This document shows, piece after piece, positions 32 to 50,677 of a DNA stretch of 51,277 nucleotides. Source of the stretch: a phage; sequence record NC_105513.1; one strand, written 5' to 3'. Numbering within the stretch: position 1 is the stretch's first letter; every line of letters starts with the position of its first letter. The notes below the pieces were generated by a model. It was not told the origin of the DNA. It did no database searches and worked only from the letters and a program-made list of their open reading frames with translations. The position numbers were made by a program, and so were the translations under genes.

Positions 32-76
32 ATTATGCCAGGCTTTTACACCTGGCTTTTAACAAAAAGTGCTATT
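32..76 (-). promoter_or_regulatory. box-type promoter (box 57..76, -10 CATAAT 32..37)
   Basis: rc reads AATAGCACTTTTTGTTAAAA-N22-CATAAT; serves gene 50891..51277 across the junction. Confidence 0.6.
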
Positions 77-782
77 TTGCGTTTGCTTCGAAGACTGCGC
101 GAGCAAAACCGCGCGGAGTGAGGGAGCGGATCATCTTTGTGCGAGATGATTTTCCGCCAGTTTTGGCCCAGCCTGGATTATCTTTGTCATTCTCTTTCGG
201 CAGGATTAAAGCGCGCTGAGGAATAACAAATCCGTTTCCAGTCCAAAGGCATGTTTTCTTAAAGTAGCGATCCCGCGCCGGAATAATATCAGGAAAGTCG
301 GGATGTTTATCATCTTCCGGAAGATAGCCAGCATAATCGCACGGATGGAACGTATAATCAGGCTTGCGCCATAACGTTGACAGCTTGCCTACAGGATTCT
401 CTATCATGTACGGAACGCCGAAATAATCAGCAATTTGCGCCGCTATTTTGCAAGTGTCGGCGGCCTCATCCTGGAAAGAGGGATTCTCAAGGCGTTTTTT
501 GGACCAATGGCGAGATCCGCTATTTGCAAGGTCAGTGCACGGCGGAAATGCCATAATGAAATCAGGCTTGCCCCAATTTTCAAGTTTTGCGGTATATTTG
601 AATAGCTCATCAATCCACACATTAACGTAAAAAATATTATCATGGATTATGCGCACTGATTGGTAATCTCCATGATCTGCATCATCGTAATTAAAGCAAA
701 TGCATTTATATCCAGCATCAGCCCAATCTTTAACGGCTTTACCAGATCCATCAAACAAAGAGAATATTAAACCTTTATACAT
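72..782 (-). CDS. DNA (cytosine-5)-methyltransferase-like protein
   Basis: 236 aa; ordered motifs FSLFDGSG (FxGxG AdoMet site), FPPC (PC catalytic Cys), IENPVG (ENV); RBS GAGGTG upstream; stop TAG embedded in promoter box. Confidence 0.55.
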   Translation of the reverse strand: MYKGLIFSLFDGSGKAVKDWADAGYKCICFNYDDADHGDYQSVRIIHDNIFYVNVWIDELFKYTAKLENWGKPDFIMAFPPCTDLANSGSRHWSKKRLENPSFQDEAADTCKIAAQIADYFGVPYMIENPVGKLSTLWRKPDYTFHPCDYAGYLPEDDKHPDFPDIIPARDRYFKKTCLWTGNGFVIPQRALILPKENDKDNPGWAKTGGKSSRTKMIRSLTPRGFARAVFEANAK

Positions 783-791
783 TTCATCACC

Positions 792-1016
792 TCAAAACGG
801 AAAGCATCTAGGGCAGTTCGGATCAAAATTGCAACCACAATCATTAACAATCATGGTTGGATCTGCAAATGCAGCGCCGCATTCATGGTCCATATCCATT
901 TCACCCAACGCATCATCAAGCGTCCTGATTTTATATGCGACCTCAAGCGCGGCCTCTTTATTCAGTCCGGCATCTTCTGCTTTTTGCAGTCGCTCAAAAA
1001 AACCGTCTTGACTCAT
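792..1016 (-). CDS. hypothetical cysteine-rich small protein
   Basis: 74 aa ORF, RBS AAGGAG; C-terminal CGCNFDPNCPRC cluster. Confidence 0.5.
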   Translation of the reverse strand: MSQDGFFERLQKAEDAGLNKEAALEVAYKIRTLDDALGEMDMDHECGAAFADPTMIVNDCGCNFDPNCPRCFPF

Positions 1017-1126
1017 TTAATAAACTCCTTAACAACAGCAAGAATAATCACAAGCCCAGCAGTAAAAACAAGCAAACCGACAAGGCCAATCATAACACCA
1101 AATAAAATATCAAGCGCCTTAATCAT
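1013..1126 (-). CDS. putative small hydrophobic peptide (37 aa)
   Basis: MIKALDILFGVMIGLVGLLVFTAGLVIILAVVKEFIK read from reverse complement; single predicted TM helix; stop overlaps next ATG; below ORF-track length cutoff. Confidence 0.3.
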   Translation of the reverse strand: MIKALDILFGVMIGLVGLLVFTAGLVIILAVVKEFIK

Positions 1127-1137
1127 TTATTCACCAT

Positions 1138-1166
1138 TGATAAAATGGGAGGCGGCAACCTCCCAT
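1138..1166 (-). terminator. rho-independent terminator
   Basis: 8-bp stem ATGGGAGG/CCTCCCAT, 6-nt loop, U-run on minus strand. Confidence 0.45.
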
Positions 1167-1173
1167 TGATTAA

Positions 1174-1434
1174 TCATACAGCCTTCCAGCTTTCAATAAA
1201 CATGCTGTTTTCTTCCAGAAGTTTAATCAATTCTTCGCGCGTATATTTGCGGATTTTACTACCTGGATGTGAGCCAACAACAAACACACCTTTACCACTT
1301 GTGATGGTTAACTGGTTAATTCCGCAAGATTTATCCATTTTCACGGCGACGCGGTGATGTGCATCAACAGTGTGCATGATGTTAGTGACTTTAGCTTTCA
1401 TTATGCGATCCTCATTGTACTTAGTGTAGGACAT
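1174..1434 (-). CDS. hypothetical protein
   Basis: 86 aa ORF in early leftward block. Confidence 0.5.
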   Translation of the reverse strand: MSYTKYNEDRIMKAKVTNIMHTVDAHHRVAVKMDKSCGINQLTITSGKGVFVVGSHPGSKIRKYTREELIKLLEENSMFIESWKAV

Positions 1435-1439
1435 TATAT

Positions 1440-1673
1440 TTACTTCAAATTCTCGATCTTGTTATTGCCAATTGCAGAATGAACGCAACGCTCTTGCGTC
1501 TCCTTGTCGCCATGAACATCAATATAATAACCAGGTATGACAGTAAAAAACCAATTACCACGCCAGAAGAAATAAAGGCCATGCTTGCTTCCTTTCGCGC
1601 ATTTATTAGCATTTTTAGGTATTGGAAGTCCGTGTACTCTCCGCAATTCTACATTCTTGTTAAAATTTGGCAT
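1440..1673 (-). CDS. hypothetical protein
   Basis: 77 aa ORF, RBS GGAGG 7 nt upstream. Confidence 0.5.
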   Translation of the reverse strand: MPNFNKNVELRRVHGLPIPKNANKCAKGSKHGLYFFWRGNWFFTVIPGYYIDVHGDKETQERCVHSAIGNNKIENLK

Positions 1674-1867
1674 TACACAACCTCCATAAAAGTATTGAAT
1701 CCACGCAGTTTGAAAGCATTGCCATGCTTAACAACGTTCCATGTCAGGCCGGAGTGATACGCAACCATATCCTCAAGATCAATGGTGATGATAGCGCCTT
1801 TCTTAAAGATTCCTTTCTCGTGAGTGGTGTCACGCTGTACAACTTTAACGTCAACCTGTGTTTCCAT
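1673..1867 (-). CDS. hypothetical protein
   Basis: 64 aa ORF preceded by promoter box 1924..1943 and conserved leader GAGGATTTAAAAATG. Confidence 0.5.
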   Translation of the reverse strand: METQVDVKVVQRDTTHEKGIFKKGAIITIDLEDMVAYHSGLTWNVVKHGNAFKLRGFNTFMEVV

Positions 1868-1898
1868 TTTTAAATCCTCATTCGTTGTCGATGCGCAT

Positions 1899-1943
1899 AA
1901 TATACCAATCAGAGGCGCATCGTTTTTAACAAAAAGTGCTATT
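1899..1943 (-). promoter_or_regulatory. box-type promoter (box 1924..1943, -10 TATATT)
   Basis: box, 22-bp spacer, TATATT, then conserved leader CATCGACAACGAATGAGGA. Confidence 0.6.
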
Positions 1944-2218
1944 CAACAACAGATCCAGTTAAAGAGATAAGCTGCCTTGTGATCATACTGACGCGCAACA
2001 ACCGGAAGATTTTCACCGCTCTGATGACCGAAGCAGATCGGCAACTCACCCTCAAGAGAGCGGAAGCCGCCAAATTCAAGATCCCGCACTGGCTTTGAGC
2101 GCCACGCTTCAATAAATCCGCGTTCGTCACGCGTGATATAGTGGTATATGTTAGGGAGGGGCAATTGTACACCCTCAAAATCCACGGTATCGGTATAGCT
2201 GTAAAACTTAGAACTCAT
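1943..2218 (-). CDS. hypothetical protein
   Basis: 91 aa from Met MSSKFYSY; RBS GGAG; start overlaps stop of 2208..2360. Confidence 0.5.
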   Translation of the reverse strand: MSSKFYSYTDTVDFEGVQLPLPNIYHYITRDERGFIEAWRSKPVRDLEFGGFRSLEGELPICFGHQSGENLPVVARQYDHKAAYLFNWICC

Positions 2219-2360
2219 AGTCAACAACTCCAAATTCGTTAACGATTTGCGCCTTATAGAATCCGCCATTTTTCGCAAGGTTGTAGCAGGCCGCTACAGT
2301 TTCAAATTCTCGCACTTCCGGCTGGCTGTTTTCATGTTCCCAGGTAATCAGAGTAACCAT
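2208..2360 (-). CDS. hypothetical small protein (50 aa)
   Basis: MVTLITWEHENSQPEV... read from reverse complement; preceded by promoter box and conserved leader GAGGATTTGAAAATG. Confidence 0.45.
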   Translation of the reverse strand: MVTLITWEHENSQPEVREFETVAACYNLAKNGGFYKAQIVNEFGVVDYEF

Positions 2361-2393
2361 TTTCAAATCCTCGCATTCGTTGTCGATGTGTGT

Positions 2394-2438
2394 AATATAT
2401 CGGATTGCGAGGATTGAGTTTTAACAAAAAGTGCTATT
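2394..2438 (-). promoter_or_regulatory. box-type promoter (box 2419..2438, -10 TATATT)
   Basis: box, 22-bp spacer, TATATT, conserved leader. Confidence 0.6.
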
Positions 2439-2704
2439 TAGTCCAGGAATTCGATTTCGCGCTCGCCAGTTAACGGATCTTTAATCCAGAATCCGAGCGC
2501 CTCACCGTAAATACCGCCATAGAATCCAAGCGCCGACAGATCCTCACCTTTAACAAATACCAGATCCCCGCTACGGCTTACGTGAGATACGTTAACGATA
2601 ACCGGAAAGGTGCGATCCTTAAATGCAGGCCGCAGGGCGTAACATCCGTTATTGAGCAAACGTGCTTTGCGCTTAACTGGAATAGGTGCATTGATTCGCG
2701 CCAT
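2438..2704 (-). CDS. hypothetical protein
   Basis: 88 aa ORF; stop abuts promoter box 2419..2438. Confidence 0.5.
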   Translation of the reverse strand: MARINAPIPVKRKARLLNNGCYALRPAFKDRTFPVIVNVSHVSRSGDLVFVKGEDLSALGFYGGIYGEALGFWIKDPLTGEREIEFLD

Positions 2705-2717
2705 CTTTATTTCTCCT

Positions 2718-2963
2718 TCATTGTTGATCGTGTTTAACGGCCATCAGAACATCACAGGACTCGTTAATGAATTTAGCCATGCGTTTATCATCACCAACAG
2801 GTATTAGCGCGTTAAACTCGCGTTTGCTACTGAATACCGTCACTTTATGAAACGATGCGAACGGCATCGACGGGAACTCGACTGTTTGCGTCAAGATTCG
2901 CAATCCCATCTTTTTGGCCCTTATCTGGGCCTCAGCGAGTTCAAAATCCACTTCACTAATCAT
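2718..2963 (-). CDS. hypothetical protein
   Basis: 81 aa ORF, overlaps start of downstream gene by 4 nt. Confidence 0.5.
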   Translation of the reverse strand: MISEVDFELAEAQIRAKKMGLRILTQTVEFPSMPFASFHKVTVFSSKREFNALIPVGDDKRMAKFINESCDVLMAVKHDQQ

Positions 2964-3232
2964 TTCTTGATCTCCTCAGCAATAAACTTCAGGACTTTGC
3001 GCAAAAACACTTCATTATTGATGGTCGCTGGCAATTCTTCTTTTACTTCTTGCGGCAGGTAAACGTTGCCATGCCAGGTTAAGCAATCGTAGTTGATACG
3101 ATAAGAGCAAAGCCACTCGCAATCGTTATCCGCTTCCCAAATGCAGAGTTGCAGAACATCACCGAAATCCTCAACAGTCAGATCCAGACCGTGACGCTTT
3201 GCAAAGTTGAAAGTGGTTTTGCTGATGTTCAT
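2960..3232 (-). CDS. hypothetical protein
   Basis: 90 aa ORF, RBS AGGAG; first gene after promoter box 3296..3315. Confidence 0.55.
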   Translation of the reverse strand: MNISKTTFNFAKRHGLDLTVEDFGDVLQLCIWEADNDCEWLCSYRINYDCLTWHGNVYLPQEVKEELPATINNEVFLRKVLKFIAEEIKK

Positions 3233-3270: not shown

Positions 3271-3315
3271 ATTATGCCGAATCCAGTCAGGCACGTTTTA
3301 ACAAAAAGTGCTATT
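3271..3315 (-). promoter_or_regulatory. box-type promoter (box 3296..3315, -10 CATAAT)
   Basis: box, 22-bp spacer, CATAAT, leader CACATCGAAACGAGA; first promoter of leftward early block. Confidence 0.6.
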
Positions 3316-3868: not shown

Positions 3869-3904
3869 ACATGCCAAAAATTGTTATTAAAACACAAAAA
3901 TACA

Positions 3905-3933
3905 TTGACACGTATGAAAGGCAAGGCAATAAT
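3905..3933 (+). promoter_or_regulatory. sigma70-like promoter TTGACA-17-AATAAT
   Basis: canonical spacing, about 35 nt upstream of ATG 3970. Confidence 0.5.
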
Positions 3934-3969
3934 GCATCCAGTTTAAACGCAACAAAAGGAGTAGACGCC

Positions 3970-4455
3970 ATGAGCGAAGAAAATATTAGCACCATGTCGC
4001 GTAGTGAGTTCTGCGATATGCTTCGCAGCCTGGGCGCGGCAATTGGTAGCGGTGAGCGTAATGATGTATTCATGCCAGCACTTTTTTTGTGCGCTAACGT
4101 GGAGAACGGCGAAGCAATTACGGCATCGTACATGCGCCAAGTGGTCAACCGTGTGCCAGAAGTAAAGCAAAAAGGCGTGATCAGCATTAAGCGAAAGGTG
4201 ACTGATGAGGGTGATGGCTTTGTGTTTACGCTCACTGAAGCCAAAAGCAAGCCTCGCGTTCTGACTGGTGAAGAAATCGACGAGATCGCAGAAAAGCGCG
4301 CAGAGAAGGCGGTAAGCAAAATTCTTAATCACCTGGTAAACGTAATGCCAAATATCACAGACCTGGAAGGCGACAAACTTGCTGGGGCGTGTGAGGCTAT
4401 CGGGCGCTACCAGGATATGATTCGTAAACTCGCTGGAGGAAAAGAGGATGAATAA
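3970..4455 (+). CDS. hypothetical protein
   Basis: 161 aa from MSEENIST; RBS AAGGAG; downstream of TTGACA-17-AATAAT promoter. Confidence 0.6.
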   Translation: MSEENISTMSRSEFCDMLRSLGAAIGSGERNDVFMPALFLCANVENGEAITASYMRQVVNRVPEVKQKGVISIKRKVTDEGDGFVFTLTEAKSKPRVLTGEEIDEIAEKRAEKAVSKILNHLVNVMPNITDLEGDKLAGACEAIGRYQDMIRKLAGGKEDE

Positions 4456-4708
4456 GGCATTAATTGGAGTTTTGATTGCAATCGCTACCCTTACCGGATG
4501 CGAAAAGGCATCTGAATCAACAGTTGTCGTAGGAGTGGAGTCAGATTTTAAAGTCGGTCGCCTGTTTACTGTTGATGGATGCACTGCGTACCGATTCTAT
4601 GACAACGGTCGAGCAATCTATTACACCAATTGTAAGGGCGCAACGGATAGCACATACCGCAGCGGCAAAAACGTAATGCACCAACAAGTCACAACAGATA
4701 TTAAATAG
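4448..4708 (+). CDS. putative lipoprotein
   Basis: 86 aa; N-terminal signal peptide with lipobox LTGC (MNKALIGVLIAIATLTGCEK). Confidence 0.6.
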   Translation: MNKALIGVLIAIATLTGCEKASESTVVVGVESDFKVGRLFTVDGCTAYRFYDNGRAIYYTNCKGATDSTYRSGKNVMHQQVTTDIK

Positions 4709-4748
4709 CACTTTTTGTTAAAACTCGAAAACGATAACCAGGCATAAT
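4704..4748 (+). promoter_or_regulatory. box-type promoter (-10 CATAAT 4743..4748)
   Basis: AATAGCACTTTTTGTTAAAAC, stop TAG 4706..4708 inside box; 22-bp spacer. Confidence 0.6.
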
Positions 4749-4803
4749 AAATCACATAGGGCGGCACGGCGTCGCACAGTTAAACCAATCAGGAGAAAGC
4801 ACC

Positions 4804-5697
4804 ATGTTAAAACTTGCTGACATTAAATTCCCGATCACCTTCGAATCTCGCGGCATTGGTCATTACATTTTTACCGATGAAAAAACATGCCATAAGGTTG
4901 ATATGAATAGCGACAAACTAACCCCATCAACAATGGAGATTGAACACTTTATTGATGCACACAATACGCACTACAACGCACTTAAAGACTATGGCTATGC
5001 AATGCCAGGCTACACATGTTTGCACTACAAGCCATATAAGGGCCAGGTGTTACCAGTGCGCTCACCGGAACGCGCAGAGATTCCGATGGTCAATATGAAA
5101 ACCTGCGACTACAAAAAGCTGTGGTGCTTAAGTCTGGACAATATCAAGTATCCGATCACGTTCCACACGACTGGTAAGTCAACGATTCGCTACACATCGC
5201 GCGACAATGGCGTTTATAGCGATGGTACGAAATCAGGGTTGAAAGTTGATTTCTTTGTCAATGGTCACAACAAGTTCAATCCGCACAATGAAAAGGATAA
5301 GGTGTACTACGTGGAAGATATTACAAAACACTTGTTTGGAGAAACACCATTCGGCGGCGGTAAGACGTCAATTCAACAAATCATTGGCGAGGAGATCCAC
5401 AAGGCAGCCGTTGAAATGAAAGCGCCTGGAGGATGGCGTATTGATAAGAGCGCAATTGTCTATCAAGAAATAGTAACGCAGGGCGCAATTGAAGACATGC
5501 CACTTGCCGCCACGCTAAAAGGCGTCCAAATTGCGGATGGCACATGGTTTGAATTAACGGCAAAACCAAAGACTATCGAGATTCATGATGATGTTGTTAT
5601 TCTTCTGCTTCATTACGGTAGCGCAAAAAACCGTACCGTTGCGGGTGAGATTAGCATCAAGCGCGGAACGATGGTTAAGTGGAATGTCAAAGTGTAA
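4804..5697 (+). CDS. hypothetical protein with internal tandem duplication
   Basis: 297 aa; two homologous segments (LADIKFPITFESRGIGHY... and LDNIKYPITFHTTGKSTI...). Confidence 0.65.
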   Translation: MLKLADIKFPITFESRGIGHYIFTDEKTCHKVDMNSDKLTPSTMEIEHFIDAHNTHYNALKDYGYAMPGYTCLHYKPYKGQVLPVRSPERAEIPMVNMKTCDYKKLWCLSLDNIKYPITFHTTGKSTIRYTSRDNGVYSDGTKSGLKVDFFVNGHNKFNPHNEKDKVYYVEDITKHLFGETPFGGGKTSIQQIIGEEIHKAAVEMKAPGGWRIDKSAIVYQEIVTQGAIEDMPLAATLKGVQIADGTWFELTAKPKTIEIHDDVVILLLHYGSAKNRTVAGEISIKRGTMVKWNVKV

Positions 5698-5740
5698 ATA
5701 GCACGAATTGTTAAAACTCAAATGTGGGGCCAGGTATAAT
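5697..5740 (+). promoter_or_regulatory. box-type promoter (-10 TATAAT 5735..5740)
   Basis: AATAGCACGAATTGTTAAAAC; 21-bp spacer. Confidence 0.6.
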
Positions 5741-5770
5741 GGCCTCACTTTCAACGAAGGAGATAAAACG

Positions 5771-6208
5771 ATGTACATTAGCAAGAAGATGAAATGCGTT
5801 TCCGTTAATTATGGTTGTGCTGGAATGTTCAAGCCTGGCGAAATCTATACGGCGCAAAAACTGAAATCATCAACCGGATCCTTTTACGTGAGCAATAGTA
5901 AAGGGCATCGCATGTTCCTGAACGGTGGCGAAGGCACTAAGGTTATGGCGCACGCTATGGTGATTGCTGAATTTGAGGAAGTGAAAGATGGAACAAATAA
6001 GCGCGTTAAGCACAAGTTTATTGATAATCATGGCGATGCACTTGAGGTATATAAGTTCGGCGATCGCGTGTTTATTGATGGCACATTTGAAGGTGGACGC
6101 AGGCCGGATTTTAGATCGATACTCACCATTGACCAGGTGCGCAAGCTGGCGGATAAGTTAAATGATCTGGCAGATGAAATCGAATACAAGCAAATTCATT
6201 TTAATTGA
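5771..6208 (+). CDS. hypothetical protein
   Basis: 145 aa from MYISKKMK; RBS AAGGAG. Confidence 0.55.
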   Translation: MYISKKMKCVSVNYGCAGMFKPGEIYTAQKLKSSTGSFYVSNSKGHRMFLNGGEGTKVMAHAMVIAEFEEVKDGTNKRVKHKFIDNHGDALEVYKFGDRVFIDGTFEGGRRPDFRSILTIDQVRKLADKLNDLADEIEYKQIHFN

Positions 6209-6219
6209 TAGGTTTGATA

Positions 6220-6759: not shown

Positions 6760-6917
6760 TCTGGTTACTTTTAATCTTTGTCACAAGTTACAATTCCGCC
6801 GCTATTGAATCGCAAGAGTTCCACGGCGAATCAAGATGCCAGGAAGCACGAAAACAAGTTGTTCTCCACATGTCAGATAGTGGGAAAGATGTAACAGCGC
6901 TATGCGTTCGTAAATAG
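6756..6917 (+). CDS. small membrane protein (MIWLL family, 53 aa)
   Basis: ATG overlaps upstream stop; hydrophobic N-terminus MIWLLLIFVTSY; stop TAG embedded in promoter box. Confidence 0.45.
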   Translation: MIWLLLIFVTSYNSAAIESQEFHGESRCQEARKQVVLHMSDSGKDVTALCVRK

Positions 6918-6957
6918 CACTTTTTGCAAAAACACATTATCGGGCTTGCGGTATAGT
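6913..6957 (+). promoter_or_regulatory. box-type promoter (-10 TATAGT 6952..6957)
   Basis: AATAGCACTTTTTGCAAAAAC; 21-bp spacer; conserved leader CCCATCGACAACAAGCGAGGA. Confidence 0.55.
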
Positions 6958-7629: not shown

Positions 7630-8220
7630 ATGAAACGCGACATTATCATTCTTAACGGACCGCCAGGAGTTGGCAAAGATACGCTTGCGGCATACTTAAC
7701 GGGTCATCGTTACGCAGCGGTTAAAGCGTCATTTAAACAGCCTATGTTCGATATTGCATTCTCCATGCTTGGCGTTTACCGATATGACGAGTTCATTGAT
7801 CTGTATAACGACCGTGAGCAGAAAGAAAAGCCTCAAGCAATCTTGCAAGGTAAGTCTCCGCGACAATTCATGATCTGGATTAGCGAAGAAGTCATGAAGC
7901 CAGCTTTTGGCGAGCAATATTTTGGGAATCGCATGGTTGAGCAAGTACACGAGATGTACAGAGATTTAGCTGTTGTAATTAGTGATGGCGGATTCCCTGA
8001 AGAAATCAAGCCGCTCGTTAAGGCAGGCCATGAAGTTCACATTTGCCGACTGCATCGCGAAGGATTCACGTTTGATGGCGATTCACGAAACTATATTGAC
8101 CTGAGCGGATACCATCACCGAGTCAAGCATTACGACTTCACAATGATTGATGGCGAGCCAGAAAAGACTGTTGACGAGATCATCAAAGCGGTGCAGTGGA
8201 AACACACAAAGATTGAATAG
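7630..8220 (+). CDS. P-loop nucleotide kinase-like protein
   Basis: 196 aa; Walker A ILNGPPGVGKDT near N-terminus; RBS GGAG. Confidence 0.6.
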   Translation: MKRDIIILNGPPGVGKDTLAAYLTGHRYAAVKASFKQPMFDIAFSMLGVYRYDEFIDLYNDREQKEKPQAILQGKSPRQFMIWISEEVMKPAFGEQYFGNRMVEQVHEMYRDLAVVISDGGFPEEIKPLVKAGHEVHICRLHREGFTFDGDSRNYIDLSGYHHRVKHYDFTMIDGEPEKTVDEIIKAVQWKHTKIE

Positions 8221-8260
8221 CACGAATTGCTAAAAGCGGGGCGCAATGCCTCGCTATAAT
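8216..8260 (+). promoter_or_regulatory. box-type promoter (-10 TATAAT 8255..8260)
   Basis: AATAGCACGAATTGCTAAAAG; 22-bp spacer. Confidence 0.6.
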
Positions 8261-9273: not shown

Positions 9274-9561
9274 ATGGCTAAAAGCAATCGTAAAATGTTG
9301 ATTAACGCATTCGAAAAGGCAGCGCTTGAGCGTGGCTGGAATGACTCATTTCACACAGCAAACTGTATCCGCCGTTACGGATTCAAGAATTGCCGCTCCT
9401 GGGCGCGTCAAATGGCTTCATGGTATGATCTTGATGCGCATTACCTTGATATGGATTGCGCCCTTGTTGAAATGATTGAGCAGGCCGCATTAGAGGATCG
9501 ACCATTAACGCAATCTGATTTTGACGATTTTGTGCGCGATGAAATTTATTATATGAGCTAA
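9274..9561 (+). CDS. hypothetical protein
   Basis: 95 aa, RBS AAGGAGGAAG; stop followed by promoter box. Confidence 0.55.
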   Translation: MAKSNRKMLINAFEKAALERGWNDSFHTANCIRRYGFKNCRSWARQMASWYDLDAHYLDMDCALVEMIEQAALEDRPLTQSDFDDFVRDEIYYMS

Positions 9562-9604
9562 TAGCACTTTTTGTTAAAACTTCCGCGAGGGCATTTGTTA
9601 AAGT
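9560..9604 (+). promoter_or_regulatory. box-type promoter (weak -10 TAAAGT)
   Basis: AATAGCACTTTTTGTTAAAAC; 22-bp spacer to TAAAGT. Confidence 0.45.
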
Positions 9605-12233: not shown

Positions 12234-13801
12234 TGCTGATTTGGGAAGACTTAACAGCGGCGCAAAAACGCGCCGTTAAGGAAATGAGCGAATATTCATT
12301 CGAAAAGATGATCCGCATTTGGTTTCAACTTCTCCAGGGGCAAAGGTTTTTAGGAAACTGGCATTTCAGTTACCTATGCAGCGAAGTTGAAAAAATCATC
12401 AAAGGCGAGTCACAGAATGTAATTTTCAACATAACGCCAGGCAGTGGTAAAACAGAGATATTCTCGATCCACATGTCACCTTATGCGTCATTGAAAAGTA
12501 AGAAGGTGAGAAATCTTAATTTGTCGTTTAGTGATGGCCTTGTCCAGCAGAATAGCAACCGCATCAAAGAGATTATTGGTTCTCCAGAATGGCAGGAGCT
12601 ATGGCCTGGAAAGTTGGCAAAGGCGAGCGCAAAGGATTTGATTGTAACTGATGGCGGCAAGGTTAAATTACAAGTTAACTCGCGTTCTATCGGAGGTCAG
12701 GTTACTGGTCTGCGTGGTGGCTACATGGACGATGGTTTTACTGGTATGTTGGTTCTTGATGATCCAGACAAGCCGGATGACATGCTTTCTAAGGTGAAGC
12801 GCGAAGCCGGACACATGCGCCTAAAGAACACGGTGCGATCGCGTCGAATGAAGGACACCACGCCAATTGTGATGGTTCAGCAACGTCTACACGTCAATGA
12901 TTCAACATGGTTCATGACAAACGGCGGCATGGGCGGCATCAAGTTTAAGGTGGTTAGTATTCCGGCGCTCGTTACTAAGGAATATCGCGAAACGCTTCCT
13001 GATTGGTTAAAGCCTGAGTTTGATCGCGATGTTTTGTCCAGTAAGCCAGTGATGATTGATGGCGTTGCTCATTATTCATTCTGGCCTGCTAAGGAAAGCG
13101 CGGATGAATTGCTTGCGCTTCGCAATGCCGATCCGTACACGTTCGCTAGTCAGTATCAGCAACAGCCTGTTGCGCTTGGCGGTAACGTGTTTAAAACAGA
13201 GTGGTTTCAGTATTACGGAAGCAGCGAGAAATGCACGCTACCAAAACCGGATCGCTTTGAATATACATTTATCACGGTTGATACCGCGCAGAAAACAGGG
13301 GAGCTTAACGACTATTCCGTGATCTGTTATTGGGGGATGTATAAAGATCGTGTCTACTTCATTGATGGCGTTCGCGGGAAATGGGAAGCACCGGACCTTG
13401 AGACGAATTTTGTTGCATTCGTTAATCAGTGCTGGAAGCGCAATAAAGAATGCGGAACGTTGCGAAGGATTCATGTTGAAGATAAATCGTCTGGCACTGG
13501 ATTGATTCAGAGTGCGGCGAAAAAAATCATGATCAAGATCAATCCCGTTCAGCGCGATAAAGACAAGGTTACTCGTGCAATGGACGCAGCACCAGTAATG
13601 CGCGCCGGACGCGTGGCACTTCCAGAATCTCATTCTATGCTGGCTGAGATACTCGCTGAAGTTGCGGCGTTCACATTCGATGATTCGCATCCTCATGATG
13701 ATATTGTTGATAACATCATTGATGCGGTTAACATTGAAATGAACATGGCAGATGATCCGGTTGGAAGAATGAAAAAATTGGCAGGTTTGCGGAACAAATA
13801 G
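12233..13801 (+). CDS. terminase large subunit
   Basis: 522 aa; N-terminal ATPase with Walker A ITPGSGKTE and acidic Walker B LVLDDPDKPDD; C-terminal nuclease-like region; position before portal. Confidence 0.85.
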   Translation: MLIWEDLTAAQKRAVKEMSEYSFEKMIRIWFQLLQGQRFLGNWHFSYLCSEVEKIIKGESQNVIFNITPGSGKTEIFSIHMSPYASLKSKKVRNLNLSFSDGLVQQNSNRIKEIIGSPEWQELWPGKLAKASAKDLIVTDGGKVKLQVNSRSIGGQVTGLRGGYMDDGFTGMLVLDDPDKPDDMLSKVKREAGHMRLKNTVRSRRMKDTTPIVMVQQRLHVNDSTWFMTNGGMGGIKFKVVSIPALVTKEYRETLPDWLKPEFDRDVLSSKPVMIDGVAHYSFWPAKESADELLALRNADPYTFASQYQQQPVALGGNVFKTEWFQYYGSSEKCTLPKPDRFEYTFITVDTAQKTGELNDYSVICYWGMYKDRVYFIDGVRGKWEAPDLETNFVAFVNQCWKRNKECGTLRRIHVEDKSSGTGLIQSAAKKIMIKINPVQRDKDKVTRAMDAAPVMRAGRVALPESHSMLAEILAEVAAFTFDDSHPHDDIVDNIIDAVNIEMNMADDPVGRMKKLAGLRNK

Positions 13802-13817
13802 CACGAATCGACAAACC
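13797..13817 (+). promoter_or_regulatory. degenerate box copy without correctly spaced -10
   Basis: AATAGCACGAATCGACAAACC at terminase stop; followed by terminator, not a -10. Confidence 0.4.
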
Positions 13818-18035: not shown

Positions 18036-18054
18036 CACAAAATTATGTTGCACG

Positions 18055-18072
18055 TTTAACAAAAAATGCTAT
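18055..18072 (-). promoter_or_regulatory. orphan box copy, inverted relative to flanking genes
   Basis: TTTAACAAAAAATGCTAT about 50 bp upstream of major capsid ATG; no -10 at 21-22 bp on the minus strand. Confidence 0.4.
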
Positions 18073-21774: not shown

Positions 21775-21807
21775 GTTACTGTACAATCATGCTACACGAT
21801 TCATAAT
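21773..21807 (+). promoter_or_regulatory. putative promoter TTGTTA-N23-CATAAT
   Basis: immediately after major-tail terminator, upstream of chaperone gene. Confidence 0.4.
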
Positions 21808-21813
21808 CAATTC

Positions 21814-21832
21814 TTTTAACAAAAAGTGCTAT
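21814..21832 (-). promoter_or_regulatory. orphan box copy, inverted, abutting RBS of chaperone gene
   Basis: TTTTAACAAAAAGTGCTAT directly before CAAGGAGAAAGAAATG. Confidence 0.4.
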
Positions 21833-27727: not shown

Positions 27728-27735
27728 AATAGCAC
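27728..27735 (+). promoter_or_regulatory. half-box AATAGCAC 15 nt upstream of J-like ATG
   Basis: only the AATAGCAC half is present. Confidence 0.25.
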
Positions 27736-27750
27736 AAAAGGTGAAAAAGC

Positions 27751-32607: not shown

Positions 32608-32651
32608 ACTATACACGATCTTGCGGTGGGCGTTTAGCAAAAAGTGCTATT
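32608..32651 (-). promoter_or_regulatory. box-type promoter (box 32634..32651, -10 TATAGT)
   Basis: rc AATAGCACTTTTTGCTAAA-N22-TATAGT upstream of lipoprotein gene. Confidence 0.55.
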
Positions 32652-34138: not shown

Positions 34139-34219
34139 ACAGCACAAATAGCTAAACAAATGAAAAATGCGGTGTTATAATTCACCGCATAAGTTAACAA
34201 CAAGAGTAAGGAAATAAAC

Positions 34220-41142: not shown

Positions 41143-41198
41143 ATGCACCTCAAACAAAAAAGCCTGACAGATGATAACATCATGCCAGGCATTGGTTT

Positions 41199-41672
41199 TT
41201 AGCAATTAGTGCTTTCAGGTTTATACAGGAATCCTCCAGGCTCATAATCTGACATTCTTACCACTCGCAACATTTCGCGCTTATCACATCTCTTTGTGAG
41301 CGGTTTGCCATTGGAATCAAATCGCAGATCTGGACGACAGAATGATGCGCGATAGCCTTGACATCCATATTTTTTGTAATCGTTATGCACCTTTTGAGCG
41401 CCAGCGGCTGAAATCATACCGCGAACGCGCCACTGATTTACAGTTTGCTGGCTAACGTTAAGACGCTTTGCCATTGCTGACACGCTGCCGTAATACTCAA
41501 TAAGAATGTCAAGCCGTGCTTTTAGTCCGGCGCGCACTTCATCTTTTAAAACATAGTATCCTGTAGGGCGCTTGCGCTTTTTCTTATCTTTACCCCGTCG
41601 AGTTCCGTTATTGCCATTGATTGTGCGTTTGTCAATCTTACCAGTTGATACTGCGATTCGCTGTTCTTTCAT
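41199..41672 (-). CDS. putative DNA-binding protein
   Basis: 157 aa; basic N-terminus (KDKKKRKRP) and helix-turn-helix-like LNVSQQTVNQWRVRG. Confidence 0.45.
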   Translation of the reverse strand: MKEQRIAVSTGKIDKRTINGNNGTRRGKDKKKRKRPTGYYVLKDEVRAGLKARLDILIEYYGSVSAMAKRLNVSQQTVNQWRVRGMISAAGAQKVHNDYKKYGCQGYRASFCRPDLRFDSNGKPLTKRCDKREMLRVVRMSDYEPGGFLYKPESTNC

Positions 41673-41684: not shown

Positions 41685-41728
41685 AATAGCATTTTTTGTT
41701 AAACGATGATTTAATGATTGTGTATTAT
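41685..41728 (+). promoter_or_regulatory. box-type promoter (-10 TATTAT 41723..41728)
   Basis: AATAGCATTTTTTGTTAAAC; 21-bp spacer; upstream of helicase gene. Confidence 0.55.
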
Positions 41729-41761
41729 ACACGCCAAATGGCATTACTCAAAGGTTTTAGA

Positions 41762-43801: not shown

Positions 43802-44207
43802 TAAAGGCGATTATCTGGAGTTTTACGAAAGAGATCCGACAGATACTCTGAAAGAGGAATCGCACCAGATCGGGGCGTTTCAATGGGTAACTTATGCTCA
43901 TCCTGAATTACTGGCATGGCATACGAAAAACGAGGGCGATAAGGGAATCGCCACCGCAATGATGGATCAGCAAGCCGGACTAGTTAAGGGTGTAAGTGAT
44001 TTTATCATCCTGATTGGATTAAAAGGCCGTTACCCGTTCGCGGCAATAGAGATGAAGCGCGTCAATAAGTCCGGCAAGGGGAAGGCTTCACCAGTCAGCA
44101 AGGATCAAAAAGCCTTCTTGCGCCGTGTGCGTGAGCTTGGCGGATTCGCTGCCGTAACATACGGATATAAGCAATTCATGATCGCTGTAGAATACATGAT
44201 GAAATAG
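43788..44207 (+). CDS. putative VRR-NUC domain nuclease
   Basis: 139 aa; GVSDFIILIG ... AAIEMKR resembles PD-(D/E)XK VRR-NUC core; adjacent to helicase. Confidence 0.5.
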   Translation: MAMTDKGDYLEFYERDPTDTLKEESHQIGAFQWVTYAHPELLAWHTKNEGDKGIATAMMDQQAGLVKGVSDFIILIGLKGRYPFAAIEMKRVNKSGKGKASPVSKDQKAFLRRVRELGGFAAVTYGYKQFMIAVEYMMK

Positions 44208-44247
44208 CACTTTTTGTTAAAACTGGCGCGAAGGATTGCGCCATAAT
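44203..44247 (+). promoter_or_regulatory. box-type promoter (-10 CATAAT 44242..44247)
   Basis: stop TAG 44205..44207 inside box; inverted repeat in spacer; upstream of dam. Confidence 0.6.
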
Positions 44248-44987: not shown

Positions 44988-45245
44988 ATGCAAAAAGAAA
45001 GAAGCATTTATTTAAATGAAACTGGAAAGTGGTTGTTATTTCGCGCTATGGTATGCGATGCACTTGATAAAAACCCTAACGTGAAAAAGATGATTGATTG
45101 CGATCCGTGGGAATTTTCAAGCGCATTAGACATGAGCTTTGAGGAGATCAAAAAACTCCCGCTTGAAAAATGGAACGAGCAAATCAGAAATGACATGCAA
45201 GAATTTGTCGATTCGTGGAATTTTCAGCACGGAATAATCCACTAA
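44988..45245 (+). CDS. hypothetical protein
   Basis: 85 aa from MQKERSIY, RBS GGAG. Confidence 0.5.
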   Translation: MQKERSIYLNETGKWLLFRAMVCDALDKNPNVKKMIDCDPWEFSSALDMSFEEIKKLPLEKWNEQIRNDMQEFVDSWNFQHGIIH

Positions 45246-45288
45246 TAGCACTTTTTGTTAAAACGCCCGACCTTGTGTCGGGCATAAT
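45244..45288 (+). promoter_or_regulatory. box-type promoter (-10 CATAAT 45283..45288)
   Basis: 22-bp spacer containing inverted repeat GCCCGA...TCGGGC. Confidence 0.6.
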
Positions 45289-47796: not shown

Positions 47797-47798
47797 TT

Positions 47799-48432: not shown

Positions 48433-48465
48433 TTTTAAAATCCTCATATTCGCTTCGATGAAACA

Positions 48466-48510
48466 AATATACCCGATACGAGATCAGGTGTTTTAACAAA
48501 AAGTGCTATT
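48466..48510 (-). promoter_or_regulatory. box-type promoter (box 48491..48510, -10 TATATT)
   Basis: 22-bp spacer; conserved leader CATCGAAGCGAATATGAGGA. Confidence 0.6.
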
Positions 48511-48700
48511 CAATACGCTTTACAGTAACCAACAAAACTCCGTCCTCATCACACAAATTATGCTCTGATATATCAAACGCTCGCATGTCAGAATGAATGA
48601 GCGTTAACATTGCGTGCATGAAGTCGTCATGTGAGATTGAACTTACGGCGCAGAACTTCAATATTTTGTCTATTAGCATTTGACGTAAACAATTCTTCAT
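48506..48700 (-). CDS. hypothetical protein (start uncertain)
   Basis: ORF overlaps 48627..49019 in another frame; stop TAG embedded in promoter box. Confidence 0.35.
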   Translation of the reverse strand: MKNCLRQMLIDKILKFCAVSSISHDDFMHAMLTLIHSDMRAFDISEHNLCDEDGVLLVTVKRIE

Positions 48701-49019
48701 CGCTCATTTCTCCGATCCGTAAAGCATCTCTTACCCATTCGTTTTGCATACCTTCCAGGCTGTAAAGTTCAAACGAGAAAGGGCGATTTGCTGATCCTTT
48801 CTTACACCAGAACTTTCCACCAACTCCATCAAGATAACCAGCGGTCATCATTCTTGCGCAAAATTCTTTTGAAACGGCACTTGCAAACATCCTCGGAGTA
48901 AATCCTGCGGCCCTTGCGAGCCGCTCACATTCTCTGTGCTGAAAGATAAATTTTGCTATATGTTGACGTGTAAACCATTCGAATGACTCACACCATCGAT
49001 ACAGATCCAGAAGAAACAT
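48627..49019 (-). CDS. hypothetical protein
   Basis: 130 aa ORF downstream of the large ATPase gene. Confidence 0.45.
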   Translation of the reverse strand: MFLLDLYRWCESFEWFTRQHIAKFIFQHRECERLARAAGFTPRMFASAVSKEFCARMMTAGYLDGVGGKFWCKKGSANRPFSFELYSLEGMQNEWVRDALRIGEMSDEELFTSNANRQNIEVLRRKFNLT

Positions 49020-49021
49020 AA

Positions 49022-50605
49022 TTACCCCAGCAATGTTGGATTTACAAAAACAACGCCATTAATCACACAAATATAATTTCTTTCTTCAAGCATCGGCAGC
49101 AGTTGCGTTTCCATACGCTTCATTACGCCAGCCTGGCCAACAAACGGCTTAACTTTTCGTGCAGCCTCATATATGGCGCGCACATTCAAGATCCCCTTGT
49201 TAGCCTTACCGTGTCGAGTGATGATCTCGATTAGTTTACCCATTTCAGCATCATCACCAGCATAGCCAGAAGCGTTGGCGGCGCTAATGTATGTTTTGCT
49301 CAACTCGCTAAACATCAGCAGTGCTTCCTGAACGGTTTCAACCTCAATCTCTTTCGACTTTTGAGGGTATCCGCCAGGATTAAACCAATTGCGGATAGTG
49401 TGCAAAACCGAAGCAATCCTGATCACCTGCTTATCCATTTTGCCAAGCGCACCGCGCAGCATTGTATGCGAATACTTTCCGCCATCGGCAAGGTGCGGTT
49501 CCATCTCCTGACGAGCCATGTTAAGAACTCGCATTGCGGATTTGCTGATCTTAAGCTGGATGTTCGATTCACTCATGATGTTATGGATCAGCTTGAAATA
49601 TTGGCTTTTCAGTTCTCCATCAACAGGTTCATAAGTAGAATCACCGTTATCATCAACAAACTTTCTACGGCCTAAAAATGATTCCTCACGCACAAGCAAA
49701 TAACGCTCACTTACACCGATACCGCGCGATCCTGCATCCATGATGGCATTGATTGTTTCATCCTGGGCAATTACCGCCATACAGCCAAGAGCTTTAAAAC
49801 TCATATTGTTGTCAGCGTTTGCGCGAGCTATAGAAACATGACCGTGATCCCATGCTTTTAATACAAGTTCGCTGTTGGTTTTACGTTCGCTATTGGCATA
49901 TGTCAGACCTAAAAGGCTGTTAATACTTGTTGCCTCGTCTGAAATCACAGCAAAGTTACCCTGGCGATTGTTGATTCTTGCAAGTCCTTCCGGCGTTGTG
50001 TCGGACACAGGGAAAACGATGTCACACATCTTTTCCAGTTTTTCTTCCAGATCTTCTTTCTCCTGGTACAGAGATTCCATATCAGCGCCGGAGCGCTCGC
50101 TTTTCATCTCTTTTGCAAGACCTGCCAACTTTGCCTGAATCTTTTTTCTTTCCTTCTTTCGCTGTTCATTAATTCTTTCCACTTCAGCAACCATAGGAGC
50201 AAGTGCCAGGCTGTTAACGGCAGATTTACCAGTTGATGGAGGCTGGCTTGTGACAACGTAAAGAGCGGTTGGTTGATCCGTTCCGTGATACTCAACCGTG
50301 AAGCGTCCAAGCATTGCAGCAGACACGCAGCCGATAAAATGCATATATGCCGATGATTCAGGGAACTGAACTGATCGAGCAATGTTGCGCGCCAACTTAC
50401 CAACAACATCAATATCATTGCCAAGAGAAATTACAGGGTAGCGATCGTTTCCGTTATTAACATCATTAACCTCACCCCAAAAGCTGGACGATTGACGGTA
50501 TCCGTTTGCCTGAATGGACACGCGCACAGGAGACAATCCTTGTGCATCAGCTAATTCGATAATTTGTTTTGGTGTTAGTTTATTGGTTTCAAACGAAAAA
50601 TTCAT
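49022..50605 (-). CDS. putative P-loop ATPase (replication-associated?)
   Basis: 527 aa from MNFSFETNK (RBS AAGGAG); deviant Walker A SQPPSTGKS and Walker B-like FAVISDEA. Confidence 0.55.
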   Translation of the reverse strand: MNFSFETNKLTPKQIIELADAQGLSPVRVSIQANGYRQSSSFWGEVNDVNNGNDRYPVISLGNDIDVVGKLARNIARSVQFPESSAYMHFIGCVSAAMLGRFTVEYHGTDQPTALYVVTSQPPSTGKSAVNSLALAPMVAEVERINEQRKKERKKIQAKLAGLAKEMKSERSGADMESLYQEKEDLEEKLEKMCDIVFPVSDTTPEGLARINNRQGNFAVISDEATSINSLLGLTYANSERKTNSELVLKAWDHGHVSIARANADNNMSFKALGCMAVIAQDETINAIMDAGSRGIGVSERYLLVREESFLGRRKFVDDNGDSTYEPVDGELKSQYFKLIHNIMSESNIQLKISKSAMRVLNMARQEMEPHLADGGKYSHTMLRGALGKMDKQVIRIASVLHTIRNWFNPGGYPQKSKEIEVETVQEALLMFSELSKTYISAANASGYAGDDAEMGKLIEIITRHGKANKGILNVRAIYEAARKVKPFVGQAGVMKRMETQLLPMLEERNYICVINGVVFVNPTLLG

Positions 50606-50632
50606 TGGTGATAACTCCTTTTTGATGCGGCA

Positions 50633-50677
50633 ATAATACCGCACCAATGCTACCCGCATTTAACAAAAAATGCTATT
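50633..50677 (-). promoter_or_regulatory. box-type promoter (box 50659..50677, -10 TATTAT)
   Basis: 22-bp spacer; leader CATCAAAAAGGAG; upstream of ATPase gene. Confidence 0.6.

Follow-up and report, generated by a model that had tools for sequence, protein, structure and literature searches.

The 51,277-nucleotide stretch analysed here in full (the window; record NC_105513.1) comes from a T1-like Drexlerviridae coliphage (99.6% identity to JLBYU09) and carries many copies of a 21-bp box, which raises the question of what these boxes do and which protein, if any, reads them. An earlier note on this sequence had listed 18 copies. Mismatch scans confirm that the repeat is real, with 17 clear copies and a degenerate one at 13797: scanning with AATAGCACTTTTTGTTAAAAC gives 15 matches at up to three mismatches, where none is expected (100 shuffles), and 17 at up to five. 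The listed plus-strand starts (4704, 5697, 6913, 8216, 9560, 41685, 44203 and 45244 for the clear copies) were correct, whereas the minus-strand coordinates were off by 1-3 nt and are in fact 56-76, 1923-1943, 2418-2438, 3295-3315, 18053-18073, 21813-21833, 32631-32651, 48490-48510 and 50657-50677. The list was also incomplete, since full copies at 34139-34158 (+) and 41196-41215 (-) and a degenerate one at 27729-27748 (+) had been missed.

The box was thought to be phage-specific and could not be placed in a described family. It is now seen to fit a host element. Positions 2-21 agree with the published E. coli marbox consensus, 5'-GCAHWWWWTGYYAAA-3' (PMC6900184), with 15 perfect and 5 one-mismatch matches in the window. 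The expectation with one mismatch allowed is 2.78 matches, and every shuffle stayed below 20. In the same way, a PWM derived from 87 Salmonella ChIP-seq sites for MarA/SoxS/Rob/RamA (PMC10268841 Table 1) places the 17 boxes, and likewise the two missed full copies, among the 21 best-scoring of about 102,000 positions. The scores of the 17 boxes (13.8-17.1 bits) exceed those of 78-98% of the training sites, and 18 sites of the window reach at least 14 bits, compared with 0.78 in shuffles.

The -10 hexamer lies at a fixed distance beyond the box, as the earlier note had proposed. A TATAAT-like hexamer is present at 16 of the 18 copies listed there and is found 17-19 bp past the box, i.e., 21-23 bp past TTGTTA, in 18 cassettes of the window, including the two missed full copies. 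The coupling also holds across genomes: of 64 cassettes from four genomes of four genera, 49 have a gap of 18 bp, 8 one of 17, 6 one of 19 and a single cassette one of 20. In these 64 cassettes, the box is near-invariant whereas the spacer holds 0-0.1 bit per position, and the next conserved feature past the -10 is the C-A in CATCGAAACGA, which fits a transcription start site. The GCAC end always faces away from the -10 and is the promoter-distal element, while the TAAA element occupies the place of a would-be -35 hexamer. Neither a -35 hexamer nor an extended -10 TG was found in the box promoters. Counted from the sigma70-type -10, the box spans about -51 to -31, with its centre near -41; together with the missing -35, this bears out the proposal that the boxes are parts of promoters of an activator type.

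The upstream ORF ends, as previously noticed, in or against the box, either at a TAG (box positions 3-5) or at a TAA or TGA overlapping positions 1-2. The claim that terminators are lacking has to be abandoned, since about a third of all cassettes contain a hairpin that the T1 and KP36 annotations list as a rho-independent terminator. A stable hairpin is found in 53 of the 64 cassettes, and the hairpins of most cassettes are backed by covariation. The same layout is seen in T1, KP36, Braunvirinae and others.

Table. Box copies, predicted promoter cores and related features of the window, in order of position
Feature	Coordinates	Strand	Details
Promoter core	32..75	-	marbox 56-75 ATAGCACTTTTTGTTAAAAG; 18-bp gap; -10 CATAAT 32-37; predicted +1 near 25
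Promoter core	1899..1942	-	marbox 1923-1942; 18-bp gap; -10 TATATT 1899-1904; predicted +1 near 1892 (cAtcgacaacgaa)
Promoter core	2394..2437	-	marbox 2418-2437; 18-bp gap; -10 TATATT 2394-2399; predicted +1 near 2387
Promoter core, first in leftward early arm	3271..3314	-	marbox 3295-3314; 18-bp gap; -10 CATAAT 3271-3276; predicted +1 near 3264
Near-consensus sigma70 promoter, one of few without box	3905..3933	+	TTGACA-17-AATAAT; start of rightward early arm
Promoter core	4705..4748	+	marbox 4705-4724; 18-bp gap; -10 CATAAT 4743-4748; upstream ORF stop is TAG within box
Promoter core, 'GAA' variant	5698..5740	+	marbox ATAGCACGAATTGTTAAAAC; 17-bp gap; -10 TATAAT 5735-5740; hairpin arms either side of -10
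Promoter core	6914..6957	+	marbox ATAGCACTTTTTGCAAAAAC, 15-mer at 6917 identical to Salmonella ChIP-seq site SL1344_2584; 18-bp gap; -10 TATAGT; hairpin flanking -10
Promoter core	8217..8260	+	marbox ATAGCACGAATTGCTAAAAG; 18-bp gap; -10 TATAAT
Promoter core	9561..9604	+	marbox 9561-9580; 18-bp gap; weak -10 TAAAGT; 7-bp covariation-backed stem flanks -10
Degenerate marbox, box start 13797	13798..13817	+	AATAGCACGAATCGACAAACC; end of large terminase gene, then terminator 13829-13851; no correctly spaced -10
Reverse-oriented marbox, late region	18053..18072	-	45 nt ahead of major capsid start codon; neither strand has a good -10; position kept in T1, TLS, Vc1 and Motto
Reverse-oriented marbox core	21789..21832	-	after major-tail-gene terminator; 18-bp gap; weak -10 TAGCAT; would direct transcription antisense into the terminator hairpin
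Degenerate box, TLS DR8 type	27729..27748	+	ATAGCACAAAAGGTGAAAAA; tail-fibre gene 5' UTR; terminator and TATAAT 27711-27716 upstream
Promoter core, lone cor-like gene	32608..32650	-	marbox ATAGCACTTTTTGCTAAACG; 17-bp gap; -10 TATAGT
Promoter core, absent from earlier note	34139..34181	+	marbox ACAGCACAAATAGCTAAACA; 17-bp gap; -10 TATAAT; hairpin flanks -10
Promoter core ahead of primase gene, absent from earlier note	41171..41215	-	marbox AAAGCACTAATTGCTAAAAA, highest PWM score (17.9 of possible 18.0 bits); 19-bp gap; -10 TATCAT within hairpin, then T-run
Cro/YdaS-like HTH protein gene, 157 aa	41199..41672	-	only detectable DNA-binding regulator
Promoter core, helicase operon	41686..41728	+	marbox ATAGCATTTTTTGTTAAACG; 17-bp gap; -10 TATTAT; overlaps divergent leftward promoter
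Sigma70-like promoter, regulator-primase operon	41724..41751	-	TTGAGT, 16-nt spacer, TATAAT; read from sequence
Promoter core	44204..44247	+	marbox; 18-bp gap; -10 CATAAT; spacer hairpin GGCGCG...GCGCC
Promoter core	45245..45288	+	marbox; 18-bp gap; -10 CATAAT; spacer hairpin GCCCGAC/GTCGGGC, then T-rich tail
Promoter core	48466..48509	-	marbox; 18-bp gap; -10 TATATT
Promoter core	50633..50676	-	marbox ATAGCATTTTTTGTTAAATG; 18-bp gap; -10 TATTAT

In class II promoters, a forward marbox overlaps the -35 position, clustered near -41, with a canonical -10 and no recognisable -35 (PMC12052159, PMC10268841, PMC8811837, PMC9178005). Every cassette of the window fits this definition, and the box cassettes, judged by their sequence, have class II marbox promoter architecture. 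For example, E. coli micF displays the marbox ACAGCACTGAATGTCAAAAC, 18 nt, TAGAAT and then the annotated RNA start; its marbox equals the phage box at 15 of 20 bases and its gap to the -10 is identical (18). Like the phage cassettes, micF and other class II promoters of MarA/SoxS/Rob/RamA have a 20-bp asymmetric marbox in forward orientation, whose GCAC is distal and whose (C/T)AAA covers the -35 position (PMC9178005, PMC8811837), 18 bp to a sigma70 -10, a centre near -41 and no -35. However, host promoters have single sites before stress genes whereas the virulent phage repeats the site about 20 times in 51 kb, in copies that deviate less from consensus than most host sites do. The phage box, which is predicted to be bound by host proteins, doubles as the stop codon of the upstream gene, and a GC-rich hairpin lies within or next to the spacer and -10.

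The repeat itself is already known in T1-like phages. The 21-nt direct repeats of TLS, which are the same element, were published in 2024, with T1, Rtp and Rogue1 mentioned as unpublished observations; their consensus is aaATAGCACnnnTTGnTAAAA, their subgroups are TTT, GAA and AAA, and the 18-21 copies point the same way as the genes and precede start codons by about 76 nt (PMC11447400). Their role was left open (stoperator, enhancer site or UP element), and neither the fixed -10 coupling nor the marbox identity was reported (PMC11447400). The marbox identity of the repeat and its class II layout are new here. The literature searched contained no start-site, binding or genetic data for any T1-like phage.

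The analogy with T4 MotA-box middle promoters drawn in the earlier note does not hold for sequence, position or factor. In these phage promoters, too, a good -10 goes with an activator box instead of a -35, but the MotA box has another sequence, is centred at -30 instead of -41 and needs phage MotA and AsiA. No AraC-type, MotA or AsiA domain was found in 48 non-structural ORFs, and no MarA/Rob homologue among the six-frame ORFs of the phage (best E 0.47), which favours a host activator. Mu Mor- or C-dependent and lambda cII-dependent promoters likewise possess a -10 and an activator site that overlaps or replaces the -35; however, their sites are dyad or direct repeats for phage-encoded oligomers, whereas the window box lacks symmetry and corresponds to the site of a monomeric host activator.

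It seems reasonably probable, from the match and its spacing, that the boxes form the upstream halves of class II marbox-type sigma70 promoters and are bound by MarA, SoxS or Rob, host activators involved in stress and antibiotic resistance. Positions 2-21 would be a 20-bp asymmetric marbox for these monomeric AraC-family activators, with RamA as an additional one in Klebsiella and Salmonella. The activator, on a box centred near -41, would make up for the missing -35 contact through sigma70 region 4 and the alpha C-terminal domain, the arrangement solved for micF. Transcription would start about 25 nt ahead of the start codon. Rob would be the likeliest activator because it is made constitutively and binds the marbox more tightly than MarA or SoxS (PMC10268841); MarA, SoxS or RamA could act in stressed cells. 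About 18 box promoters would serve the operons for replication and recombination as well as small early genes, and the same layout is used across Drexlerviridae, a family that probably runs most of its early genes via host MarA, SoxS and Rob.

T1-like phages thrive on ordinary laboratory cultures. A counterpoint to host activation is the shortage of these activators in such unstressed cells, which contain little MarA or SoxS and keep most Rob sequestered (PMC2787020, PMC10268841). Without an activator, polymerase still binds micF and sodA, and micF and similar class II promoters retain basal activity (PMC2787020); given this activity, the box might not be strictly needed. As a counterpoint to the marbox reading, the A at box position 3 is conserved beyond the requirement of the marbox consensus.

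In favour of host activators, the cassette occurs in 591 phage records that are nearly all Drexlerviridae of enterobacterial hosts. The exceptions are about 20 Campylobacter-labelled records, which are T1-like coliphage genomes and probably carry a wrong label, two labelled exceptions and three T4-like records. Intact cassettes in 'Vibrio phage Vc1' and 'Pseudomonas phage Motto' are a counterpoint to host activation; to our knowledge, Pseudomonas lacks MarA/SoxS/Rob. The host labels of both phages are doubtful because of their GC content of 45%.

The box could instead be read by a phage activator, either the 157-aa protein or an unrecognised small protein, made immediate-early from one of the few sigma70 promoters without a box and turning on the ~18 box promoters as delayed-early or middle ones. 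This is unlikely in our opinion. In its favour, the 157-aa regulator has an HTH between a basic N-terminal arm and a C-terminal domain that contains Cys, and is kept in 824 phage records. Its own -35/-10 promoter, which shares part of its -10 with the rightward marbox promoter, is activator-independent as read from the sequence, so that a phage-made box binder, encoded next to a box, could be available in time. Moreover, one box falls between this gene and the divergent helicase operon, where a regulator would usually have its own site. Phages with Vibrio or Pseudomonas as labelled host have kept the cassettes, and host activators are scarce or sequestered without inducers. Yet it would then be a striking coincidence that the box fits the host marbox perfectly (15/15), in micF orientation and with the 18-bp gap. 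Furthermore, the regulator has a single-HTH Cro fold, with Xfaso1 and N15 Cro as best PDB matches (E about 0.008), and such proteins bind palindromes as dimers whereas the box has no dyad symmetry; the unique perfect palindrome GTGTATTATACAC at the regulator's own promoter would be a more natural operator, and the domain searches described above also argue against a phage activator.

Still less likely is that no activator is involved, the box being an UP-like A/T-tract element for RNA polymerase alpha subunits, or a strong -10 being sufficient, with a functionally meaningless likeness to the marbox. UP elements are among the options raised for TLS (PMC11447400); the T5 and A4 tracts of the box lie at -43 to -32, and the activator-free polymerase binding at micF and sodA points the same way, as would growth in unstressed hosts or hosts lacking Rob. 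However, the invariant positions include G/C (GCAC, TG), which are not UP features, the 'GAA' variant that breaks the T-tract is equally conserved, and the extended -10 TG is missing. UP elements are located at -59 to -38, upstream of the -35 hexamer, unlike the box, which extends to -31 without any -35. Finally, it is very improbable that the box has no promoter role and is a silencing or roadblock site (stoperator-like) or mainly a recombination or module-shuffling sequence. The sites do lie between genes along transcription, the cassettes moved with genes into T4-like phages, and the late region contains reverse-oriented copies that lack a usable -10, but an immunity repressor is not recognisable in these virulent phages, and recombination would not hold the box invariant beside a freely varying spacer. 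Neither role would lead one to expect that, in 64 cassettes, the box stays linked to a -10 at a fixed distance of 18 bp and to a C-A start.

Positions 2-21 of the repeated 21-bp box read ATAGCACTTTTTGTTAAAAC, and GCACTTTTTGTTAAA fits at 15 of 15 positions the marbox consensus 5'-GCAHWWWWTGYYAAA-3' published by the Grainger laboratory (PMC6900184). The marbox, the binding site of the host AraC-family activators MarA, SoxS and Rob (RamA in Klebsiella and Salmonella), is asymmetric, with an A site GCAC and a B site YAAA. In the window, the consensus has 15 perfect and 5 one-mismatch matches versus 2.78 expected, and none of 100 shuffles reached 20 matches. A position weight matrix built from 87 Salmonella ChIP-seq sites for the activators MarA, SoxS, Rob and RamA (PMC10268841 Table 1) ranks the 17 boxes among the 21 best-scoring of some 102,000 positions in the window. 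Their scores (13.8-17.1 bits) exceed those of 78-98% of the training sites in a leave-one-out comparison, and 18 window sites reach at least 14 bits versus 0.78 in shuffles. Furthermore, the 15-mer at 6917 is identical to one mapped Salmonella site, and the ypeC site is contained exactly in DR18, one of the published repeats of phage TLS.

The repeat itself is real and highly non-random: the 21-mer has 15 matches in the window with at most three mismatches, where none is expected, and 17 with at most five. All the copies listed in the earlier note exist, including the one at 13797, which was called degenerate and is so, while the positions given for the minus-strand copies were off by 1-3 nt. 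The list was also incomplete, as two full copies, both within the top 21 of the matrix, had been missed at 34139-34158 (+) and 41196-41215 (-), as well as an additional degenerate copy at 27729-27748 (+).

Class II marbox promoters carry a forward marbox that overlaps the -35 position and clusters near -41; they have no recognisable -35 element (mean of 1.9 matches out of 6) but a canonical -10 and start site, and when micF is viewed by cryo-EM together with Rob, SoxS or RamA, the B site of the activator lies over the -35 with sigma70 region 4 displaced (PMC12052159, PMC10268841, PMC8811837, PMC9178005). By every sequence feature tested, the phage boxes appear to belong to this host promoter class. 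The orientation is forward (GCAC distal to the -10) in each of the 18 window cassettes that have a spaced -10, as well as in 64 of the 64 cassettes of four genomes (the window, T1, KP36 and one Braunvirinae genome). Across these four genera, the gap between the marbox end and the -10 is 18 bp in 49 of the 64 cassettes, 17 in 8, 19 in 6 and 20 in 1. If +1 is placed at a conserved A, the inferred start, the box extends from -50 to -31, with its centre at -40.5. The -35 position then holds TAAAAC, with 2 of 6 matches to TTGACA, and the -10 consensus is TATaaT. In the 64 cassettes the box is near-invariant at the positions specified by the marbox, whereas each spacer position holds 0-0.1 bit. A scan for -35/-10 promoters detected only one cassette. 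This situation is comparable to that of E. coli micF (NC_000913.3), where the marbox ACAGCACTGAATGTCAAAAC is followed by 18 nt, TAGAAT and, 8 nt later, the annotated RNA start: orientation and 18-bp gap are the same, and 15 of 20 box bases are common.

The claim that a TATAAT-like hexamer follows the boxes holds for each non-degenerate gene-facing copy, after 17-19 unconserved bases. Five bases after the -10 comes the dinucleotide C-A, part of a loosely conserved CATCGA(A/C)AACGA; a Shine-Dalgarno sequence follows, and a start codon about 25 nt past the A. In most cassettes, about 72-83 nt separate the box from the ATG. The overlap with the upstream gene was also correctly described, as the preceding ORF stops at a TAG inside the box or at a TAA or TGA overlapping its first bases. 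The predicted initial transcribed sequence ATCGA(A/C)AACGA (+1 to +12; e.g., 2387-2376 and 6964-6975) shows loose conservation between cassettes and between genera (about 0.5-0.8 bit at each position) and could have an effect on 5'-end stability or translation.

The 2024 re-annotation of phage TLS described a 21-nt direct repeat, aaATAGCACnnnTTGnTAAAA, mentioned its presence in T1, Rtp and Rogue1 as unpublished observations, left its function open between a stoperator-like site, an enhancer site and an UP element, and found only three ordinary sigma70 promoters (PMC11447400). The window boxes fit the description of the TLS repeats DR1-18, i.e., aaATAGCACnnnTTGnTAAAA in about 18-21 copies, co-directional with the genes and about 76 nt before start codons. 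The repeat itself is already published. A link between the marbox, MarA, SoxS or Rob and T1-like phages was found in none of the searched literature, where no Drexlerviridae phage had its start sites mapped either.

Looking for an 83-nt cassette in phage records led to 591 matches. All belong to Drexlerviridae of Klebsiella, Escherichia, Shigella, Salmonella, Citrobacter and Enterobacter, except for about 20 records of “Campylobacter phages”, Vibrio phage Vc1, Pseudomonas phage Motto and T4-like singletons. As the earlier note had proposed, relatives were scanned for the motif: with the ChIP-seq matrix, T1, Klebsiella phage KP36 and the Braunvirinae genome have 13-17 cassettes each. The T4-like singletons, from two groups, each carry a single complete cassette (see table). 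In P-KP2, the neighbouring gene is 66% identical to gp79 of Webervirus KP36, which indicates that gene and promoter moved together between phage families. Such singletons, transferred with genes from Webervirus-like phages, were not retained as independent functional evidence.

Coordinates of promoters, cassettes, hairpins and gene arms (window positions unless a locus is named)
Feature	Coordinates	Strand	Remark
Small early genes, leftward arm	72-3232	-	divergent from the rightward arm
Small early genes, rightward arm	3871-11631	+	divergent from the leftward arm
Packaging and structural genes	11712-32318	+	followed by recombination, replication and lysis modules
Promoter of the Cro-like regulator, TTGAGT-16-TATAAT	41751-41724	-	-10 overlaps that of the rightward marbox promoter
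Rightward promoter	within 41686-41751		marbox promoter of the helicase operon
Leftward promoter	within 41686-41751		ordinary -35/-10; Cro-like regulator and primase
Hairpin spacers (examples)	5718-5747, 6934-6964, 9581-9611, 45265-45283		also in loci L009, L010 and L005
Single complete cassette, Klebsiella Slopekvirus P-KP2	L003:1504-1575		
Single complete cassette, Krischvirus Skers	L004:1503-1578		

As to the protein that binds the box, no homologue of MarA or Rob is found in any reading frame of the phage (phmmer, best E 0.47), and no AraC-type domain among 48 non-structural ORFs (Pfam). The sole recognisable DNA-binding protein is a conserved protein of 157 aa (41199-41672, minus strand), with a basic N-terminal arm, an HTH of the Cro/YdaS type and a Cys-containing C-terminal part. 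Its AlphaFold model (pLDDT 84) best matches the Cro proteins of Xfaso1 and N15 (Foldseek E about 0.008), and the dual-HTH fold of MarA is absent among its PDB hits. Cro-type proteins target dyad-symmetric operators. The box has no dyad symmetry, and a unique perfect palindrome, GTGTATTATACAC, lies at 41720-41732, at the regulator's own promoter. Because there is no phage homologue of MarA or Rob, the box lacks a dyad and the Cro-like regulator has its own palindrome, the simplest reading would be that the boxes are bound by host Rob, MarA, SoxS or RamA. Rob is constitutive and has the highest affinity (PMC10268841). On these sequence grounds, binding and activation of the boxes by the host proteins seem rather probable.

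Binding by a phage-encoded protein is unlikely, since the Cro fold of the one recognisable candidate fits poorly with a box without dyad symmetry and its palindrome lies at its own promoter. However, as this regulator is transcribed from its own -35/-10 promoter, a phage-made activator would be possible in time. Vc1 and Motto also bear on this question. Both are Drexlerviridae records that carry 13-19 intact marbox cassettes, and their host labels, if right, argue against Rob, MarA and SoxS; these labels are themselves doubtful because of the 45% GC of the two genomes. Either the labels are wrong or the promoters work without these activators. T1-like phages thrive on ordinary cultures. Yet Rob is largely sequestered when no inducer is present, and unstressed cells contain little MarA and SoxS (PMC10268841, PMC2787020). 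The micF promoter shows basal activity without activator (PMC2787020), which favours an activator-independent action of the box, a reading that nevertheless looks quite improbable. Recruitment of the host activators stays the favoured reading.

Ideas about the function of the box other than these three readings are highly improbable. Several known classes of site were also compared with the box and do not match. The earlier note compared it with middle promoters of T4, whose MotA box has a TGCTT core, is centred at -30, lies 11-13 bp from the -10 and needs phage MotA and AsiA; the box differs in sequence, centre (near -41) and gap (18 bp), and no MotA/AsiA family was found among Pfam matches at E <= 0.015 for 48 ORFs. 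UP elements consist of A/T tracts that lie between -59 and -38, ahead of a -35 hexamer, and are contacted via A/T minor grooves, whereas the box extends to -31 with no -35, its invariant positions include GCAC and TG, and its T tract is interrupted in the GAA variant. The stoperators of mycobacteriophage L5, a temperate phage, are asymmetric sites within transcribed regions to which the immunity repressor binds. The boxes instead lie at a fixed distance upstream of a -10, and no immunity repressor was detected by Pfam on 48 ORFs and structure matching, the only HTH protein being Cro-like. A sigma70 promoter with TTGTTA as -35 would have a spacer of 21-22 bp, with no -10 at 17 bp, and there is no consistent TGn for an extended -10. 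By inspection, the box has AG rather than GG and an N3 spacing relative to sigma54 promoters (TGGCAC-N5-TTGC). Only the copy at 2418 aligns with the sigma28 motif TAAA-N-CCGATA, the others having no CGA. IHF, Fis, CRP and DnaA consensus sequences fit poorly by inspection, and a host origin of the cassette was rejected, as BLAST matched it in none of 5,426 E. coli genomes.

The region 41686-41751 contains two divergent promoters with overlapping -10 hexamers and the palindrome GTGTATTATACAC between them. On the leftward transcript, which encodes the regulator and the primase, the marbox of the rightward promoter covers roughly +11 to +31. This arrangement looks like a switch.

Besides the box and the -10, a stable stem-loop is present in 53 of the 64 cassettes, located between box and +1 (mean z of -2.7 versus shuffles; mean energy of -9.1 kcal/mol for 32 nt). 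Rho-independent terminators consist of a GC-rich stem-loop directly followed by a U-tract. In 21 of the 64 cassettes the spacer forms a hairpin, whose loop is often of the GNRA or UUCG type; the T-rich -10 and leader come next, and such hairpins are annotated as terminators in the T1 and KP36 records. These 21 cassettes look like overlapping terminator-promoter units, and for them the earlier statement that no terminator separates the genes would be wrong. Another 32 cassettes have no U-tract, and their hairpin arms lie on either side of the -10 hexamer and stop at -1. For example, ten such cassettes from six phages form a subfamily in which a 7-bp stem flanking the -10 is paired in 100% of cells, against 33-53% in slid controls; compensatory double changes occur at five of its seven pairs, and none of 500 shuffles reached its covariation score. 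Because its 3' arm lies upstream of +1, the stem enclosing the -10 would act only in read-through RNA or in DNA.

The marboxes at 18053-18072 (-) and 21813-21832 (-) are oriented opposite to the late genes, and each closely follows a plus-strand terminator. They lie less than 55 nt before the starts of the genes for the major capsid protein (18053) and the tape-measure chaperone (21813), and this arrangement is kept in T1, TLS (DR7), Vc1 and Motto. An antisense promoter, a decoy or a roadblock are possible roles.

To our knowledge, the transcription control of T1, a classical coliphage, has never been worked out, and the class II marbox reading of the repeat offers a concrete and directly testable hypothesis. 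It can tentatively be put forward that, in the more than 800 sequenced Drexlerviridae, nearly all early, replication and recombination units are under near-consensus class II marbox promoters and hence depend on host Rob, MarA, SoxS or RamA, the -10-enclosing hairpin adding a second layer. If so, this covariation-supported hairpin would be an undescribed layer of the promoter type, and phage expression would rise in cells stressed by bile, salicylate, oxidants or antibiotics, as well as in multidrug-resistant isolates overexpressing mar or ramA. About 20 strong sites per replicating genome could in turn titrate the activators off efflux-pump genes. Infection by this phage family, which is very common and to which the Klebsiella Webervirus phages of therapy work belong, would thus be tied to the intrinsic multidrug-resistance regulon. 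This would bear on phage-antibiotic combinations and on which clinical isolates are permissive. The compact 75-bp cassettes could also be used as host-state-responsive promoters.

The window belongs to a T1-like siphovirus of the Drexlerviridae (Tempevirinae, Hanrivervirus-like). Over 8 kb it shares 99.6% identity with Escherichia phage JLBYU09; grams, herni, pSf-1 and several BASEL phages are 92-95% identical to it, and its gene order is T1-like. Between the two divergent early arms, the AT-rich segment 3580-3790 carries short tandem repeats, and a near-consensus sigma70 promoter (TTGACA-17-AATAAT, 3905-3933) adjoins it; together they could be an origin or packaging region plus an immediate-early promoter. 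Nearly all spacers of the late genes (11632-32318) contain a terminator hairpin, a T-run and a Shine-Dalgarno sequence without promoter, and no second repeated promoter motif that could be a target of the Cro-like regulator was seen by eye in the late-region intergenic spacers. The late region seems to be expressed by read-through of serial leaky terminators from few starts (TATAAT at 11678-11683 and 27711-27716). Lastly, more than 20 GenBank records of “Campylobacter phages” (MG065636-MG065685) hold T1-like coliphage genomes, with as much as 95% identity to the window cassettes, and probably result from contamination or mislabelling.
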